Origin: a virus | UHGV virus genome: UHGV-0868109 | Length of the DNA stretch: 38,226 nt | Reading direction: 5' to 3' (one strand) | Part shown: piece after piece, positions 1,754 through 29,431 of the stretch | Layout: every line of letters starts with the position of its first letter | Position numbering within the stretch: position 1 is the stretch's first letter | Translations under genes and position numbers: made by a program | The notes under the pieces: generated by a model | Seen by the model: only the letters and a program-made list of their open reading frames with translations | Told to the model about the DNA's origin: nothing | Databases searched by the model: none

Positions 1754-2140
1754 TTGAAAGATCGTTTAAAAAAATTACGCAAAGAATTAGATTTAACACA
1801 ACAAGCTTTTGCAGATAAAATAGGAATGAAGCAAAACACAATTGCTCAATATGAAATGGGTAGAACAACCCCTAGTGACGCAATTATATTTTCTATATGT
1901 AGAGAATTTGGAGTTAATGAGAAGTGGTTAAGATCTGGTGAAGGCGAAATGTTTGAGGAATTGACTGATCAGCAGAAAATTCTGAAATACACAGCATTAC
2001 TGCTCAAAGATAAAGATTCGGCTGTAGCAGACGCTATTCAAACATTAATTGTTACTTATGAGCAACTGGACGATACAAGTAAAGCAGTATTGGAAAAGAT
2101 TGCTAAGCAATATATTGATAACTTAAAAAAGAGCCAGTAA
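1754..2140 (+). CDS. CI-like XRE-family HTH repressor (128 aa, no S24 peptidase domain)
   Basis: TTG start with AAAGG/GGTGA SD. N-terminal LRKELDLTQQAFADKIGMKQNTIAQYEMGRTTPS is a classic XRE HTH. Divergent from the lytic-side promoter. Confidence 0.8.
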   Translation: MKDRLKKLRKELDLTQQAFADKIGMKQNTIAQYEMGRTTPSDAIIFSICREFGVNEKWLRSGEGEMFEELTDQQKILKYTALLLKDKDSAVADAIQTLIVTYEQLDDTSKAVLEKIAKQYIDNLKKSQ

Positions 2141-2467: not shown

Positions 2468-2665
2468 TTATTCAGAATCAGGATCAAAAAGGTCTGTAAT
2501 ATCACATTTCAGACCAACAGCAAGCTTTCCGAGCGTCCTGATTCGTGGATTAGAGTCTTCACGCATACATTCCTGTATGGTAGAACGTGGAACTCCTGAC
2601 ATTAAGGAAAGCTGACGTACAGATAGATTTTTTTCATACATGATTTTTTCTAATAATATTTTCAT
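2468..2665 (-). CDS. Small XRE-family HTH regulator (65 aa)
   Basis: LSVRQLSLMSGVPRSTIQECMRE HTH. Followed by a GTCCGGTATACCGGAC palindrome at 2449-2464. Confidence 0.7.
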   Translation of the reverse strand: MKILLEKIMYEKNLSVRQLSLMSGVPRSTIQECMREDSNPRIRTLGKLAVGLKCDITDLFDPDSE

Positions 2666-2773: not shown

Positions 2774-3664
2774 ATGAGGAGGAAAAGTTTTATGAAAAAG
2801 ATTTTGACATTCCTTTTAATTGGAATGCTTATACTATCCTGCACAACTCTAACGGGATGTGGCAAAAAAGAAAGTTCAAAGACAGAATATACTATGGATG
2901 AGTTCGCTGATATGTATAACGAAACTCAATCGCTTTTTAAAAAAGAAGCTGAAAAAGCATACCTTACTGATGAGGAGCGTTATTCAGAAAAAGGACAACA
3001 GCTTTATAAAAAATGTTCCGAAAAGACTGGCTTGCCTTTTAACAAGGAGCTCACTCTTCGTGGTGTAAAATATCAGGGATACGGGTGCGTGGATTTGAAA
3101 TCCAATGACGAGAAAACCTCTATTCAATGCCTCTTTGCCCAGTCTGTTGATAACTTTTGGATATTAATACCTGACGGAACTACTGTTTCGATTAAAGGCA
3201 CTTTTTCACCAGAATCAGCTCCAGGAGCTTACGGAACACTATTTGATGTAAGTCTTGTATCTCCTGATATTGACATCAAATATGAACCCACAGACATTAA
3301 AGACGCATTAAAAGTAATCACTAATGAGCAAGGTTATGAGAGCAACATTATTATTGAGGGCGAAATTTCTGAAATCATGACCCGTGATGAAGTGGAAGAA
3401 ATAGTGGGCGGGTATGTTGATATCTCTTCTGCATTGCATGACGATGCCGCACTGATAAAGGGCGAGGATGGGAGTATTATTATCTTTTATGACAAAACCT
3501 TTACTGGTGAACTGACTGCCGGGGATAAAATAGCTGTTCAGGGAGCGTTGCAAAATGGATTCGGATATGAAAATCCTGCTACAAAAAAATATTCCTGCCT
3601 AATAGGTGTGATGCCTGATGTTGATGATTGCTACAACTTCACAGCACATCAAGACGATGAATAA
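2774..3664 (+). CDS. Secreted lipoprotein; candidate superinfection-exclusion protein (alternative start 2792)
   Basis: Signal peptide plus lipobox MKKILTFLLIGMLILSCTTLTGC. GAGGAGG SD before the ATG at 2792. Position between repressor and integrase. Confidence 0.7.
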   Translation: MRRKSFMKKILTFLLIGMLILSCTTLTGCGKKESSKTEYTMDEFADMYNETQSLFKKEAEKAYLTDEERYSEKGQQLYKKCSEKTGLPFNKELTLRGVKYQGYGCVDLKSNDEKTSIQCLFAQSVDNFWILIPDGTTVSIKGTFSPESAPGAYGTLFDVSLVSPDIDIKYEPTDIKDALKVITNEQGYESNIIIEGEISEIMTRDEVEEIVGGYVDISSALHDDAALIKGEDGSIIIFYDKTFTGELTAGDKIAVQGALQNGFGYENPATKKYSCLIGVMPDVDDCYNFTAHQDDE

Positions 3665-3696: not shown

Positions 3697-3855
3697 TACT
3701 GGAAGAAACACACGCCAATGTGCTTCTTTTGGTAACTCCGAAGAGATACACTAATGCCAATGAATATTGTATCATCTTCGGAGCAGTCACGCAAGAGAAC
3801 AACCGTTCTGTGCTGGCTGTTATTTTTATACTCAAAAACAGAAAGGAAGATGATT

Positions 3856-4950
3856 ATGTGGGTAGAAGAAAGAAAAACCGGATTCAAATTTGTTGAACGC
3901 TACACCGACCCAATGACAGGAAAGACCAGGAGGGTTTCTGTTGTAATGGAGAAAAATACGGCACAGTCGAGAAAGCTGGCTGCCGTTGCACTGTCTGAAA
4001 AGATTGACAAGGCACTGCTGCCACAGGTGGACAAGATCCGCTTGAAAGACCTGGTGGATCTATACAGAAAAGAACAGTTCCGAACGCTTAAGCAGTCAAC
4101 CTATCGCAGAAACAGTGCTGTGTGCAATACGCTAATGAAGATACTGGATCCTGAAATCTATGTTGACAAGCTCACCGCAGGTTACATCCGTGAGCGATTT
4201 CTCAATACTGGTCGGGAACACAGTACATTAAACGAATGGATGATTCGTCTAAAAGCTTTGCTTCGTTGGGGATATCGCAATGACTATATTAAAGACATAT
4301 CCTATCTCAACAAAATAGAAAGATTCAGCGATATTCCGCACCGCCAAAAGATTGAGGATAAGTTTCTTGAATCTGCCGAACTGAAAGAATTGCTCTCCGG
4401 CATGACAATTCTAAAATGGAAACTCCTTACCGAGTTCCTTGCACTATCCGGGTTGCGATTCGGTGAAGCCGCCGCTCTCACGAAGTCTGACGTTGACTTG
4501 AAAAACAGGAAAATCCACGTGACTAAAACCTACGACAGTGTGGCTGATATTACTACAACGCCCAAAACAGCCTGTTCCGTACGTGACGTATATATTCAGG
4601 ATGAATTGCTTACGGTTTGCAGAAACGTGCTTCTAGGCTGTCACAGCGGCACTGTAGTTTCAATCAGTAGCGTATTCTTTCCCGGTACAATCCGGGAGCA
4701 TATTGAATTTGATTGTTATGCAAAATATCTAAGGGAAACATCTCAGAGAGTTATTGGACGCAGGATCACGCCTCATACACTCAGGCACACTCACGCAAGT
4801 TTGCTGATGGAACAGGGAATTGATATTGATAGCATATCCAAAAGACTCGGACATAATGACAGCAGGATTACTAGAGAGATCTATCTGCACGTAACAAAGA
4901 AACTTGAAGAACAGAGAAATGCACAGATCAAAGAATTAAAAATTTTATAG
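3856..4950 (+). CDS. int: Tyrosine recombinase (phage integrase)
   Basis: N-terminal MWVEERKTGFKFVERYTDPMTGK. C-terminal HTLRHTHASLL...LGHNDSRITREIYLHV (R, HxxR and Y catalytic motifs). AGGAAG SD before the ATG at 3856. The listed ORF extends upstream to 3754. Confidence 0.9.
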   Translation: MWVEERKTGFKFVERYTDPMTGKTRRVSVVMEKNTAQSRKLAAVALSEKIDKALLPQVDKIRLKDLVDLYRKEQFRTLKQSTYRRNSAVCNTLMKILDPEIYVDKLTAGYIRERFLNTGREHSTLNEWMIRLKALLRWGYRNDYIKDISYLNKIERFSDIPHRQKIEDKFLESAELKELLSGMTILKWKLLTEFLALSGLRFGEAAALTKSDVDLKNRKIHVTKTYDSVADITTTPKTACSVRDVYIQDELLTVCRNVLLGCHSGTVVSISSVFFPGTIREHIEFDCYAKYLRETSQRVIGRRITPHTLRHTHASLLMEQGIDIDSISKRLGHNDSRITREIYLHVTKKLEEQRNAQIKELKIL

Positions 4951-5215
4951 TTTGCCCCCTTTATGCCCCCTTTTGACAATAAAAAATCTCTGAACCCCTT
5001 GCAAACACTGGATTTACAGGAGATTCAGAGATTCAGTCTAATGCCGCAGACCGGCTACCCTATATATATAAATAGGTATAAACACTGTAAGAATATTTGA
5101 TTTTCACAAATTTCTCACACATTTCAATGCAAGCAAATATAATAACTTGCCCCCTATTTGCCCCCGCTTGAGATGATACGATATTCAGCCCCGGAGTTAC
5201 TGCTCCGGGGTAATC
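4951..5215. other. Predicted attP region: two paired TGCCCCC direct-repeat sites flanking an AT-rich segment with a 9-bp inverted repeat
   Basis: TGCCCCC at 4953 and 4964, and again at 5148 and 5159, each pair 11 bp apart. ATCTCTGAA (4986-4994) and TTCAGAGAT (5024-5032). Lies immediately 3' of int. Confidence 0.35.
5189..5210. terminator. Stem-loop CCCCGGAG-ttactg-CTCCGGGG between convergent int and accessory transcription units
   Basis: Perfect 8-bp GC-rich stem. Weak T-richness follows on the plus strand. Confidence 0.35.
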
Positions 5216-5527
5216 TTATTCCCTTGTGGCATTTGCTTTGTTCTTTCCGATTTCGAGATACAATATCATCTCTTGTGGCATTTGCTTTTTTATCATCTCC
5301 CCCATTTCTTCTATTGTGATCAGATCCATGAGTTCCATCATCTTCCTGTTTAATTTTTCCGGTATTCCTAACGCCACCGCTCTCGGATAGATCATCACAA
5401 GGCACTTCATCGGATATCTGTCTGATATCCAGTTATACGGATCGTGGACACCTCCGTTTAATACTTGCAGTGTTCGCTGATATATTTCTCCGATCAATTC
5501 CACTTTTTCCCTTGTATACATAGCCAT
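5216..5527 (-). CDS. Hypothetical accessory protein (103 aa)
   Basis: ORF 6 nt downstream of the preceding gene, probably co-transcribed from duplicated promoter copy A. Confidence 0.5.
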   Translation of the reverse strand: MAMYTREKVELIGEIYQRTLQVLNGGVHDPYNWISDRYPMKCLVMIYPRAVALGIPEKLNRKMMELMDLITIEEMGEMIKKQMPQEMILYLEIGKNKANATRE

Positions 5528-5532
5528 TCACC

Positions 5533-6036
5533 TCACTTTGTCCAGTTTTCTTTCATTTCAATCACATCTTTCATTACCGTTTCCGGTACGTCTTTCATTT
5601 TTTTTAATTCTTCCTCTGTGTATCCCATCTTGTTAAGTTCTCTTGCTATCATTACCGGTGTTACTTCTTCCGGCTTTGCATTTTCGTTTTCTCCCTTCAG
5701 TTCTTCCAGTGCTGCATTCAGAGCTTTTCCAAACACTTCCCGCGAATCCTCTTCTTTTTCATCCTGTTTAGGAATGTAGACAACGATGGTTTTTTCTTCC
5801 TTGTCATAGCTTCCTGATTTTGTTTTACAGTCTGCATAGTTCTCTTTGTATTCGCTGTATTTCATTTCTACTTCTTCACAGTTTTCTGCTTTTTCTTCGT
5901 TCATTTTCTTTTTATAGCATTCTGGGCAGAGTCCGCTTTTTCCGAAATATTTAATCTTTCTTTCACGTTCTTCTGCTTTTCCGTAGATCTGTACTTCTTG
6001 TGTGTGTCCACAGCTAAACGTTACATCGTACTTCAT
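5533..6036 (-). CDS. Acidic protein with an N-terminal zinc ribbon (167 aa)
   Basis: CGH...CPEC motif and a Glu/Lys-rich tail. AAAGGAG SD before the ATG. Confidence 0.55.
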   Translation of the reverse strand: MKYDVTFSCGHTQEVQIYGKAEERERKIKYFGKSGLCPECYKKKMNEEKAENCEEVEMKYSEYKENYADCKTKSGSYDKEEKTIVVYIPKQDEKEEDSREVFGKALNAALEELKGENENAKPEEVTPVMIARELNKMGYTEEELKKMKDVPETVMKDVIEMKENWTK

Positions 6037-6140
6037 TGCTTCGTTCTCCTTTCTTTCCTCTCTGTAATTATAATATACACCAATTCAGTGTATATGTCAA
6101 TAGTTTTTTCACCGATTTAGTGTATTTTTAAAAAGTGAAT
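6037..6140 (-). promoter_or_regulatory. Promoter-operator unit, copy A: TTGACA-17-TATATT with two CAC-N7-GTG palindromes
   Basis: -35 at 6100-6095, -10 at 6077-6072. Palindromes at 6074-6094 and 6110-6122. About 90% identical to copy B. Confidence 0.5.
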
Positions 6141-6161
6141 GTAGAATCACAACCTTTCAGA

Positions 6162-6581
6162 TTACAGGCAGTACATAATATAATACGTGTTGCCATTATC
6201 TTCGACAATTCCCCAGTCTGGAATTGCTATCTTTTCCTCTAGCATTTTTCTATACTTTTCTTGCTCTTCTTCGTCAACTCCCCATTCTTCCATGTAATCA
6301 TCGAAGTGTCTTTCAAAGTCTTCTCCTTCGAATACTACAGTGCCTCTTTTAAGTTCTTCTTCCGCTTTTCTTTTTGAATATCCATTTTTCATTAATACTT
6401 CGATATCAGTCATCTTTTTTCCTCCTCTCAGAATCTCGGCTACAACTAGCCGTTCTACATAGTCGGGGCATTTGCTAAGCCCCTTCTCCCAATTTTCGAG
6501 ACTCCTGTACGGAATCCCGAGTTTCCGGGACACGTCCTTTCTGGACATCCCCCGTGCCTTGCGAGCTTCTTCAATATTCAT
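6162..6581 (-). CDS. HTH (XRE-like) DNA-binding protein with an acidic C-terminal domain (139 aa)
   Basis: MSRKDVSRKLGIPYRSLENWEKG HTH. First gene after the late terminator, behind promoter copy B. Confidence 0.6.
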   Translation of the reverse strand: MNIEEARKARGMSRKDVSRKLGIPYRSLENWEKGLSKCPDYVERLVVAEILRGGKKMTDIEVLMKNGYSKRKAEEELKRGTVVFEGEDFERHFDDYMEEWGVDEEEQEKYRKMLEEKIAIPDWGIVEDNGNTYYIMYCL

Positions 6582-6682
6582 CGCTTCGCTCTCCTTTCTT
6601 TCCTCTCTGCAATTATAATATACACTAAATTGGTGTATATATCAATGGTTTTTCACTAATTTAGTGTGTTTTAGAGCAAAAA
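6582..6682 (-). promoter_or_regulatory. Promoter-operator unit, copy B: TTGATA-17-TATATT with two CAC-N7-GTG palindromes
   Basis: -35 at 6645-6640. Palindromes TACACTAAATTGGTGTA (6621-6637) and CACTAATTTAGTG (6654-6666). Confidence 0.5.
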
Positions 6683-6707
6683 AATAAGGCCGGAGAAACC
6701 TCCGACC
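6678..6707 (-). terminator. Rho-independent terminator of the late/lysis operon
   Basis: Minus-strand transcript GGUCGGAG-guuu-CUCCGGCC followed by UUAUUUUUUU, immediately after the endolysin stop. Confidence 0.7.
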
Positions 6708-6719
6708 TTGTTAATCATT

Positions 6720-7328
6720 TCAGAACAACTGGAATCTGTCAATTTTCTTTCCGAAGCTACCAGCGTAACCATCCTGTCCACCGCCAGTCTCGTTGTTGTA
6801 CTGCCAGGAGTAATATCCTTTATTGACCGGTGAAACTCTGTACTGTGCTTTCTGACTGCTGCCATCCGGTGCAAGATATATCACCTCGATTGCATCAATC
6901 GGCTTACCGTTTCCGGCATATCCATTTACCGGATCAGCCCAGTTGAACCCGGTCACATATGGCAGCCACTTTCCACCCAGTACATGAACACGGTATTCGA
7001 CTTTTCCCACGTTACACATGATTGCAACGTCTGTGATCGCCTTTCCCCTGACTCCTGCATAATCGGCAAGATTCTTCACGGATGGATACGTCTTTCCGTC
7101 AGCTTTCACGCAGTAGGTGAATACTACTGCCGCATTATAGTGTCCTCCTGATGGTTTGGCAGTCTCTTTCGGACCAGAAGCTGTTCCCTGTCCGTAATCA
7201 ATATCACAGAGCTTCAGAAGATGCGTGAATCCATTCTGTGACAGATTGGCGATCCGCACACCGTAAGCTGATCCATCAGCAGCAATGTACTGATCATTTC
7301 CGAGATAGATTCCAATATGCCCATTCAT
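6720..7328 (-). CDS. Endolysin C-terminal portion (rest of the NlpC/P60 fold beginning HIGIYLGNDQ, plus a putative cell-wall-binding domain). In frame with the upstream ORF across a TGA
   Basis: Same frame as 7338..7631 (7631-7328=303). Starts MNGHIGIYLG, repeating the AHIG that ends the upstream ORF. Confidence 0.6.
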   Translation of the reverse strand: MNGHIGIYLGNDQYIAADGSAYGVRIANLSQNGFTHLLKLCDIDYGQGTASGPKETAKPSGGHYNAAVVFTYCVKADGKTYPSVKNLADYAGVRGKAITDVAIMCNVGKVEYRVHVLGGKWLPYVTGFNWADPVNGYAGNGKPIDAIEVIYLAPDGSSQKAQYRVSPVNKGYYSWQYNNETGGGQDGYAGSFGKKIDRFQLF

Positions 7329-7337
7329 CCATACTGC

Positions 7338-7631
7338 TCAACCGATATGCGCATCAGATCTTTTGCTGATCGGGATCACCTCAACCGCTGTACTCTTATA
7401 CTGTCCTGATCCCCGGACAATGCCGGTATACCAGCTAATCAGACCGGAACAGTCTACGCATACCCTTCCAGCTTTCTTATCATCTGATTCCCATACACAA
7501 TTAGATCCATACATTTTCCGGAGTGCCTGGATCTTTGCCAGACTCATCACTGTACCCTTTGCCCCATATACATAGGGTGTTCCGATCTTACTTTTTGCAA
7601 ATGCGATTAATCCTGCTGCTGTCTTACTCAT
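7338..7631 (-). CDS. Endolysin N-terminal portion, NlpC/P60 peptidase with the catalytic Cys (DCSGLISW); ends at an in-frame TGA
   Basis: GGAAGGGAG SD. NlpC/P60 Cys motif. Stop TGA at 7338-7340. Confidence 0.7.
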   Translation of the reverse strand: MSKTAAGLIAFAKSKIGTPYVYGAKGTVMSLAKIQALRKMYGSNCVWESDDKKAGRVCVDCSGLISWYTGIVRGSGQYKSTAVEVIPISKRSDAHIG

Positions 7632-29131: not shown

Positions 29132-29431
29132 TCACTCCTTTTCTTTTTCCAACTGCTCCACAATCCTATGGATCGTCTTGCGTGTGCTCCATGCGTCGAT
29201 TGCTTCTTCTATCGAGTTGTATCTCCTCTGGATTCTTCCAATGCATTTTGTATCGATACATCCTACAACATAATGCACCGTACCCATGTATTTTCCGTTA
29301 AAAACTAATCTTTTTGTTGCTCTTACTTCAGCTTTTCCACCGCAGAATGGACACGGAAGTAATTCAATCTCGCTCATCTTCTGGCTGTTGTAGTTCTTCA
29401 CTTTGCTTAATGTCTGAATGATTTCACTCAT
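29132..29431 (-). CDS. Lar-family restriction-alleviation-like zinc-ribbon protein (paralog 1)
   Basis: ATG at 29431 with AGGAGGG SD. ELLPCPFCGGKAEV...EEAIDAWSTR. Confidence 0.6.
   Translation of the reverse strand: MSEIIQTLSKVKNYNSQKMSEIELLPCPFCGGKAEVRATKRLVFNGKYMGTVHYVVGCIDTKCIGRIQRRYNSIEEAIDAWSTRKTIHRIVEQLEKEKE

Follow-up and report, generated by a model that had tools for sequence, protein, structure and literature searches.

The present study asks why a phage should carry two copies of one palindrome-bearing promoter in front of genes that are unrelated to each other, and what may read the palindromes. The locus lies in the virus genome UHGV-0868109, whose whole 38,226-nt stretch is called the window below and supplies the coordinates; judged from its open reading frame (ORF) layout and its Pfam and PHROG matches, the window is a temperate siphovirus-like genome of about 38 kb. 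Its minus strand holds a small cassette with two promoter-operator units, A and B, a regulator gene of the XRE helix-turn-helix (HTH) type and two further small genes. The reading we favor, at a probability of roughly 0.65, is that this cassette is a self-contained two-promoter negative-feedback regulon, with autoregulation by the 139-amino-acid (aa) XRE protein as the likely mode of control. The ORF layout is as the initial annotation gave it, and the parts of the cassette are as follows.

6577..6679, minus strand: unit B, with distal operator 6654-6666, -35 box TTGATA 6645..6640, proximal operator 6618-6640, -10 box TATATT 6622..6617, Shine-Dalgarno sequence (SD) AAAGGAG 6597..6591 and start codon ATG 6581..6579
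6162..6581, minus strand: regulator gene, 139 aa, XRE HTH plus acidic C-terminal domain (C-domain)
6032..6135, minus strand: unit A, with distal operator 6110-6122, -35 box TTGACA 6100..6095, proximal operator 6073-6095, -10 box TATATT 6077..6072, SD 6052..6046 and start codon ATG 6036..6034
5533..6036, minus strand: gene behind unit A for a 167-aa zinc-ribbon acidic protein, isoelectric point (pI) 5.05
5216..5527, minus strand: 103-aa ORF, placed in one transcription unit with the 167-aa gene
5188..5211: GC-rich hairpin at the end of the cassette, scored as a plus-strand terminator and forming the cassette boundary

Two promoter-operator units and their candidate regulator

The initial annotation described two near-identical stretches of about 100 bp. 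The repeat is real, but the wording mildly overstates an identity of 84-88%: a repeat finder matched 6032-6108 with 6577-6653 (77 nt, 88%) and 6105-6128 with 6649-6672 (24 nt, 88%), the two blocks being offset by a 1-nt insertion or deletion, and a MAFFT alignment of the minus strands over a wider stretch gave 84% mean column identity. The match runs almost unbroken from the distal palindrome through the ATG, and beyond the ATG the coding sequences are unrelated. Each copy has the order CAC-N7-GTG, A-tract, -35 box, 17-nt spacer, TATATT, ATAATT(A/G)CAGAGAGGAAAGAAAGGAGA, 8 nt and ATG, and the -35 box, spacer, TATATT, AAAGGAG and ATG that had been claimed are present in both. A promoter scan of 4800-7400 returned 12 sites against 5.9 +/- 2.4 in shuffles; the best was TTGACA-17-TATATT at 6100..6072 (11/12), and TTGATA-17-TATATT at 6645..6617 also scored (10/12). 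By sequence, each unit is a near-consensus housekeeping-sigma promoter (TTGACA-17-TATATT).

The palindromes reported for both copies were found again, the proximal ones at 6073-6095 and 6618-6640 and the distal ones at 6110-6122 and 6654-6666. The proximal palindrome is 23 nt long, ATATACAC-N7-GTGTATAT, fills the entire spacer and overlaps the -10 box. The distal one has its end upstream of the -35 box, 12 nt away in copy A and 11 nt in copy B; the centres of the two palindromes are 32 bp apart in A and 31 bp in B, about three helical turns. Searching the 38-kb window for ATACAC-N7-GTGTAT with up to two mismatches gave four matches, a number reached in 0 of 100 shuffles; three lie within the units and the fourth, at 29273-29291, is unrelated, with the distal palindrome of copy B falling outside the threshold. 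The shorter form ACAC-N7-GTGT occurs solely at the two proximal sites in the window, with 0.22 expected. Elsewhere in the phage, the cI/early switch region included, the motif is absent, and operators shared with the main immunity switch were excluded, because the motif is confined to the units and the cI/early region has 19-bp repeats of its own.

Residues 1-56 of the regulator form a basic XRE HTH domain (pI 9.9), whose identity was upheld by a match to PF01381 (HTH_3) above the Pfam gathering score, and residues 57-139 form an acidic alpha/beta C-domain (pI 4.4). The latter had been called an acidic tail; it is instead a folded, autonomous domain that is also found as a stand-alone gene, with proteins of 81-119 aa (P0114-P0117) in other mobile elements. 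The neighborhoods of these solo genes were searched for a conserved neighbor or toxin-like partner and contained none, so a conserved toxin-like partner of the C-domain was dropped as a candidate. Searches matched the C-domain to no known family or fold, and the regulator matched neither AcrIIA1 nor any solved Aca or Acr protein (phmmer at E<=10 and profiles at E<=0.1, against all PDB chains). The exact regulator sequence is present on 643 contigs, with the source names [Ruminococcus] lactaris and Dorea, and close variants are present on several hundred more. Two fusions were observed. In L210 (209-682, P0113) the first 73 residues of the regulator run in frame into LPD11 (PF18824, E=3e-32), behind a normal unit B on a 1.1-kb contig of low coverage, and in P0112 the HTH is followed by C-terminal sequence of the 167-aa protein; both are either genuine recombinants, formed by domain swap or deletion, or chimeras of assembly. 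LPDs are domains of the conflict (polyvalent) proteins of phages and conjugative elements (Iyer et al., PMC5512222).

The 167-aa protein is acidic and mostly helical. Its N-terminal ~95 aa are conserved, with invariant C9, H11, C37 and C40, its C-terminus is variable and helical, and enzyme-like conserved polar residues are absent beyond this Cys3His cluster. The family is fast-evolving, with full-length identity down to 55%. Relatives of the 103-aa ORF begin at its third codon, giving 101 aa, and identity to L014 5058-5363 is 89%. Searches of Pfam, NCBIfam, PADLOC and PHROGs with the 167-aa and 103-aa proteins, and with a 101-aa protein found behind unit B in some relatives, returned nothing, including no toxin, Abi or defence domain, and no solved structure matched the cargo proteins.

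Recurrence, constraint and linkage

Relatives were collected by exact-pattern and profile searches of IMG/VR, together with contigs encoding HTH homologues. The unit set comprises 35 instances from 19 loci plus the window, 25 of them distinct, with a deletion variant, L008, set aside. Tandem pairs are present in independent viral or metagenome contigs (L001, L002, L005, L006, L007, L010, L012-L017, L040), amounting to more than 12 assemblies, so that the duplication is genuine and an assembly artefact is ruled out. The layout that recurs is unit, HTH gene, unit, 167-aa gene and a gene of ~101 aa, and the HTH/167/103 core is in every relative retrieved, retrieval having been through the unit or the HTH protein itself. 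An nhmmer search with the unit profile retained only this phage lineage, L018 and L040, and scans of viral contigs with the leader or the operator alone gave mostly chance matches.

Constraint across the 25 distinct units lies in the half-sites and the promoter elements. The 18 half-site columns (CAC, GTG, ATACAC, GTGTAT) have two singleton changes only, whereas 8 of the 14 columns in the palindrome centres have common alternative bases; counting columns as polymorphic at a minor allele of >=2, the comparison is 0/18 with 8/14 (Fisher p=2.9e-4). The centre variants are Y/R alternatives at the innermost half-site positions (consensus ATACACYRA), and some copies are perfect 19-bp palindromes, ATACACTAA-A-TTAGTGTAT. 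An apparent inversion of the operator centre between copies A and B was also considered, and it reduces to this tolerated Y/R variation. The six columns of the -35 hexamer read TTGACA in 24 of the 25, the sole change being the TTGATA of the window, the eight columns of the SD AAAGGAGA are invariant, and the -10 box is mostly invariant. The repressible look of the promoters, first remarked on in the single genome, is matched by comparative evidence that the operator half-sites are the constrained part of both units. The two copies also exchange sequence by recombination or gene conversion, since an 83-nt core allele that occupies position A in the window occupies position B in L001, L002, L005, L013 and L015. 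The A-tract that separates the -35 box from the distal operator has 5 to 7 A, depending on the unit (L002, L005 and L040 versus the others), and the operator spacing shifts accordingly by +/-1 bp around the 31-32 bp of the window. The variation looks like homopolymer slippage and could tune cooperativity or promoter strength.

Gene content behind the units varies. In L018 a lone unit heads an operon made up of a 137-aa HTH gene (HTH-137, 71% identical) and of four small genes unrelated to the cargo; downstream lies an IS30-like transposase, and upstream there is no lysis gene. In L006, L014-L017 and L040 an unrelated 101-aa gene, absent from other relatives, stands directly behind unit B and is followed by the HTH gene with its own SD. 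There are thus at least three unrelated first genes across loci, in keeping with the claim that the units drive unrelated genes. In the integrated relatives L014-L017 the cassette is the final phage block and is followed by a different att module, a 3′ end resembling transfer-messenger RNA (tmRNA) and host genes. The similarity of the window to these ssrA-integrating relatives stops 15-20 nt past the hairpin at 5188-5211, after ...GTATCATCT, and this break before a different att module shows that the cassette moves between phages whose integration modules differ. The att module of L014-L017 (about 5360-6170) has repeats TTTCGTGTTGCAT and adjoins a putative tmRNA (ssrA) 3′ end, read by eye, past which lie phospholipase C and ABC-transporter genes of the host. 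A degenerate cassette in L008 (4207-4730) encodes an HTH protein of 108 aa, with an in-frame deletion of residues ~44-74, and from its unit A the -35 box and the distal operator are missing; this copy may be decaying or naturally derepressed.

Every full-length unit recovered lies in a cassette with the HTH gene, at all 19 loci and in the window, the transposase-flanked L018 included, and the XRE-HTH protein is the natural candidate repressor of both units. Relatives of the N-terminal domain of this protein (HTH-139) were found in L246 (E 6e-9) and L294 (E 6.5e-8) by phmmer and in L295 (37% over 52 aa) by BLASTP. The motif IPxRxxxNWE...P(D/E)Y is common to the three, each of these HTH genes has the palindrome of the units inside its own promoter, and the one in L294 stands ahead of an AbiEii toxin gene (PF08843). 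L208 has the palindrome ATCACTA-N4-TAGTGAT upstream of an unrelated 82-aa HTH gene, a second palindrome fills the spacer of the promoter between the HTH gene and its cargo, and that cargo includes a solo C-domain homologue; the predicted arrangement is the identical two-promoter wiring with a different protein-operator pair.

The promoter design also extends beyond this lineage. A scan of 185,579 GTDB species genomes with the pattern TTGAYA-N-ATACAC-N7-GTGTATA returned >120 loci, 95 of which had a callable downstream ORF; HicA/HicB operons accounted for 48/95 and HigB/HigA operons for 8/95, and both kinds of operon encode their own DNA-binding antitoxin. The form TTGACA-N-ATACAC-N7-GTGTATAAT is frequent before HicAB and HigBA in Clostridia and beyond (L211-L330). 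Inner palindromes are family-specific (ACACA-N5-TGTGT for HicAB, ACACG-N5-CGTGT for HigBA), and several HicAB loci have a second copy upstream, e.g. ATACACAAAAAATGTGTA.

A negative-feedback model and its alternatives

The regulon model builds on the anatomy of the units and their repeated occurrence, on half-sites under constraint, on linkage between gene and sites, and on homologous HTH genes whose promoters share this design; from these we infer binding, repression, cooperativity, timing and function. Dimers of the 139-aa XRE protein at the proximal operator would exclude RNA polymerase, and the distal operator, a weaker copy of the palindrome, would aid by cooperative binding. Unit B would control the regulator's own gene and unit A the 167-aa and 103-aa genes, and, as 6136-6161 contains no good terminator, read-through from B would also feed the cargo. 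On entry of the DNA into a repressor-free cell both promoters would fire, and accumulation of the regulator would then throttle both to a low steady level that could persist in the lysogen. The C-domain may be a co-expressed effector or a surface for dimerisation or for a partner. The context points to host-versus-mobile-element conflict, as anti-defence or exclusion. The regulatory logic is textbook: an XRE regulator would repress itself through operators that lie within a strong promoter.

Several points weigh against this model. Symmetry with the -10 box accounts in part for the outer arms TATAC/GTATA, and the arms are common to promoters of unrelated regulators (HicB, HigA), so that the motif alone does not give the identity of its binder. 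Covariation of protein and operator within the family allows no test, because the HTH domain and the half-sites are nearly invariant. A change of 1 nt either way in the A-tract changes helical phasing and weakens the argument for cooperativity. Finally, the relatives are all closely related phages, so conservation alone carries limited weight.

One could regard the repeat as a mere duplication or recombination scar, or as an assembly artefact, with no regulatory role, and it is true that the duplicated stretch spans leader, SD and ATG, as expected for a whole 5′ gene end, and that the core allele found at either position in different genomes shows recombination between copies. This is very improbable, as the pair recurs in so many independent assemblies (>12), the promoter is near-consensus, substitutions avoid half-sites and hexamers, and in L018 a single-copy unit heads an operon. 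It is also improbable that the operators serve another regulator, such as a host factor, a HicB/HigA-type protein or the main repressor, with the 139-aa protein acting elsewhere or through its C-domain. The same palindrome arms do stand at many unrelated promoters in Clostridia, but the motif is missing from the rest of the phage, cI/early switch included, units and HTH gene are always linked, even in L018, and homologous HTH genes have the palindrome in their own promoters.

Other explanations concern mainly what the cassette does. The initial annotation suggested defence or exclusion, and a moron resembling a toxin-antitoxin (TA) system would have the HTH protein as antitoxin-type autorepressor and the 167-aa and/or 103-aa protein as toxin or exclusion factor. 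More than half of the GTDB promoters of this design head HicAB or HigBA operons, the closest HTH relatives outside the family precede an AbiEii toxin gene, the position is that of a classical moron, the cassette closes the prophage ahead of host DNA in integrated relatives, and GC content is slightly lower than in structural genes. Nevertheless we consider this reading doubtful: toxin, Abi and defence domains are absent from the cargo (PADLOC, Pfam, NCBIfam, PHROGs), separate promoters and a 125-nt gap set the regulator apart from the 167-aa gene, unlike in bicistronic TA operons, no conserved partner accompanies the solo C-domain, and the 167-aa protein, acidic and mostly helical, varies at its C-terminus and has no enzyme-like conserved polar residues beyond Cys3His. 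An anti-defence locus of Aca/AcrIIA1 type, with an HTH-effector fusion and small acidic proteins (the C-domain and the 167-aa, 101-aa and 103-aa proteins) that would inhibit host immunity, fits the evidence at least as well as defence does. It would provide a burst on entry and then shutdown, and so would specify the function of the regulon model and not replace its mechanism. The promoter design and the layout with two inverted repeats match published acr-aca promoters, the HTH is fused to an acidic domain of ~80 aa (pI 4.4) that also exists solo in mobile elements, L210 swaps the C-domain for LPD11, a polyvalent-protein domain, and the cargo is small, acidic, fast-evolving and variable between relatives; the solo C-domain, having no conserved neighbor, argues against a fixed toxin partner. 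Yet phmmer against PDB at E<=10 gave no similarity to AcrIIA1 or any other solved Acr, the LPD11 chimera is a single short contig that may be misassembled, and the cargo has no tie to any specific defence system, and we therefore treat anti-defence as a possible but tentative assignment of function. In its most specific form, which is speculative and in our view rather unlikely, the cassette would be an anti-defence locus, so far unrecognised, in a prophage that is very common in gut Lachnospiraceae. Its regulator would join an Aca-like HTH to an acidic inhibitor domain that is itself mobile, and would control, through a portable promoter-operator-leader unit, a changing set of small inhibitors: the 167-aa zinc-ribbon protein, the 103-aa ORF product and the 101-aa protein. 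As part of this, the duplicated unit might conceivably serve as a homology patch for swapping cargo genes between positions and between elements, although we would not expect so.

Regulator-guided "guilt by association" has been a route to many anti-CRISPR and defence genes. The value of the present locus is a prevalent, mobile and tightly controlled cassette of orphan proteins, together with a reusable promoter-operator unit that marks it. It thereby flags candidates for new roles in anti-defence or exclusion, in a host group that has received little study: the solo C-domain family and the 167-aa, 103-aa and 101-aa proteins. In Clostridia the promoter with ATACAC-N7-GTGTAT in its spacer recurs as a module of operons of the HicAB, HigBA and AbiE-like kinds and may be used as a search handle for autoregulated conflict systems.

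Genome setting and comparison with known systems

Replication, packaging, structural and lysis genes occupy the minus strand from ~37.7 kb down to 6.7 kb. Around the cassette and beyond it lie the following features.

6686..6709, minus strand: intrinsic terminator closing the lysis operon, a 10-bp stem with 6 GC pairs, then ATTTTTTTGC
4951..5187: putative attP region, with int on one side and the cassette on the other; an imperfect inverted repeat lies inside two direct repeats TTGCCCCCTnTnTGCCCCC
3754-4950, plus strand: tyrosine integrase (PF00589)
2774-3664, plus strand: lipoprotein gene between the cI-like gene and int, 296 aa predicted, signal peptide with LTGC lipobox
1754-2140, plus strand: cI-like HTH gene

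A terminator closing the lysis operon had been claimed at 6678-6707; it was found at 6709..6686 on the minus strand, after the endolysin gene and directly upstream of unit B, and is conserved in all relatives. The position assigned to the cassette likewise holds, after this terminator and next to int and the putative attP, as the last prophage block in integrated relatives. Cassette GC content is 0.39-0.41, slightly below the 0.43-0.50 of structural genes. Integrase and cassette converge across 265 bp, which indicates that the window shows an excised or circular arrangement. In the attP region a repeat finder located direct repeats at 4940-4976/5135-5171, containing TTGCCCCCTnTnTGCCCCC, and inverted repeats at 4985-5005/5013-5033; both sets of repeats probably represent arm-type integrase sites together with the core.

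Several other features of the genome were observed. The lipoprotein at 2774-3664 has weak, function-less PHROG matches and is a second moron-like gene, possibly for superinfection exclusion. A 65-aa HTH ORF (2468-2665, minus strand) is convergent with the cI-like gene. At 1652-1693, between the cI-like gene and the divergent early genes, two-plus tandem copies of the 19-bp TTTTATTGTTTATGAGATA are probably the operators of the main lysis-lysogeny switch and are unrelated to the cassette palindromes. At 9-204, adjoining early genes, 10.9 tandem copies of the 18-bp unit TACCCGTGCATTTCCGTA (85% matches) could be replication-origin iterons or a partition/centromere-like site. The NlpC/P60-type endolysin is split into two ORFs (7338-7631 and 6720-7328) by an in-frame TGA at 7338-7340 on the minus strand, a codon that reads TGG (Trp) in 14 related contigs, and the intact protein of L006 has 303 aa. 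The TGA is either a nonsense mutation, implying defective lysis and a decaying prophage, or a sequencing error; a suppressor tRNA is absent, as the window has no tRNA genes. The genome with the split endolysin also holds the sole -35 down-mutation (TTGATA) among the 25 distinct units. A blastn search for cultured-phage relatives among 50,697 GenBank phage records gave a single match of 154 nt at 71%, to an unannotated faecal phage. In Rfam at E<=1, the leader and intergenic regions contained no known RNA element and only a sub-threshold chance match to MicC. Literature searches on this prophage and on duplicated moron promoters yielded nothing specific.

Compared with known systems, the palindrome-in-promoter design TTGACA-N-ATACAC-N7-GTGTATAAT is shared with HicAB and HigBA, at 56 loci of the GTDB scan, and a palindromic operator within the promoter, a trait of type II/IV TA operons, is found here. 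Unlike TA operons, which are bicistronic with one autoregulated promoter and a recognisable toxin domain, the cassette yielded no toxin domain, its cargo is variable, and the regulator comes first with its own transcription unit, 125 nt with a second complete promoter separating it from the next gene. Likeness to AbiE lies in the relatives of the HTH N-domain (37% identity) that precede an AbiEii gene and in the mode of control, since AbiEi is described as regulating its own operon by binding paired inverted repeats cooperatively (PMC7319586).

As with phage morons, the cassette is an autonomous block of promoter, gene(s) and hairpin, of variable content and lower GC, after the lysis terminator and by attP/int; it has its own promoter, with the terminator at 6709-6686 on one side and the hairpin at 5188-5211 on the other, between conserved lysis and int modules. 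Classical morons are usually single genes with no dedicated repressor, whereas this block has its own regulator and two operator-bearing promoters. The C proteins of restriction-modification systems offer a further comparison, but restriction and methylase genes are absent here, and C-boxes typically activate and then repress, whereas the operator-in-spacer geometry predicts repression only.

Close parallels in organization are also offered by the AcrIIA1/Aca loci, among them the acr locus of Listeria phage phiA006 and those controlled by Aca1, Aca2 and others. Their promoters are near-consensus; the core holds one inverted repeat, and a second of similar sequence often lies close by (PMC9410906). 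The phiA006 acr promoter, AACTATTGAC-palindrome-TAATG, is under repression by AcrIIA1, a two-domain protein that acts here through its N-terminal HTH (bioRxiv 10.1101/787200). Both units of the cassette likewise place an inverted repeat inside a near-consensus core promoter, where it fills the spacer, with a second repeat nearby and a putative XRE-type HTH autorepressor, and downstream genes are again small and of varied identity. Sequence kinship to solved Aca and Acr proteins extends only to the generic HTH fold, family and structure searches revealed no cargo homologous to an anti-CRISPR gene, and no known acr gene is present. The cassette also differs in having a duplicated unit that drives a second transcription unit. 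A shared trait is the fusion of an N-terminal HTH to a second domain: in AcrIIA1, a two-domain protein of ~150 aa, the HTH forms the N-terminal half and the C-domain is the effector.

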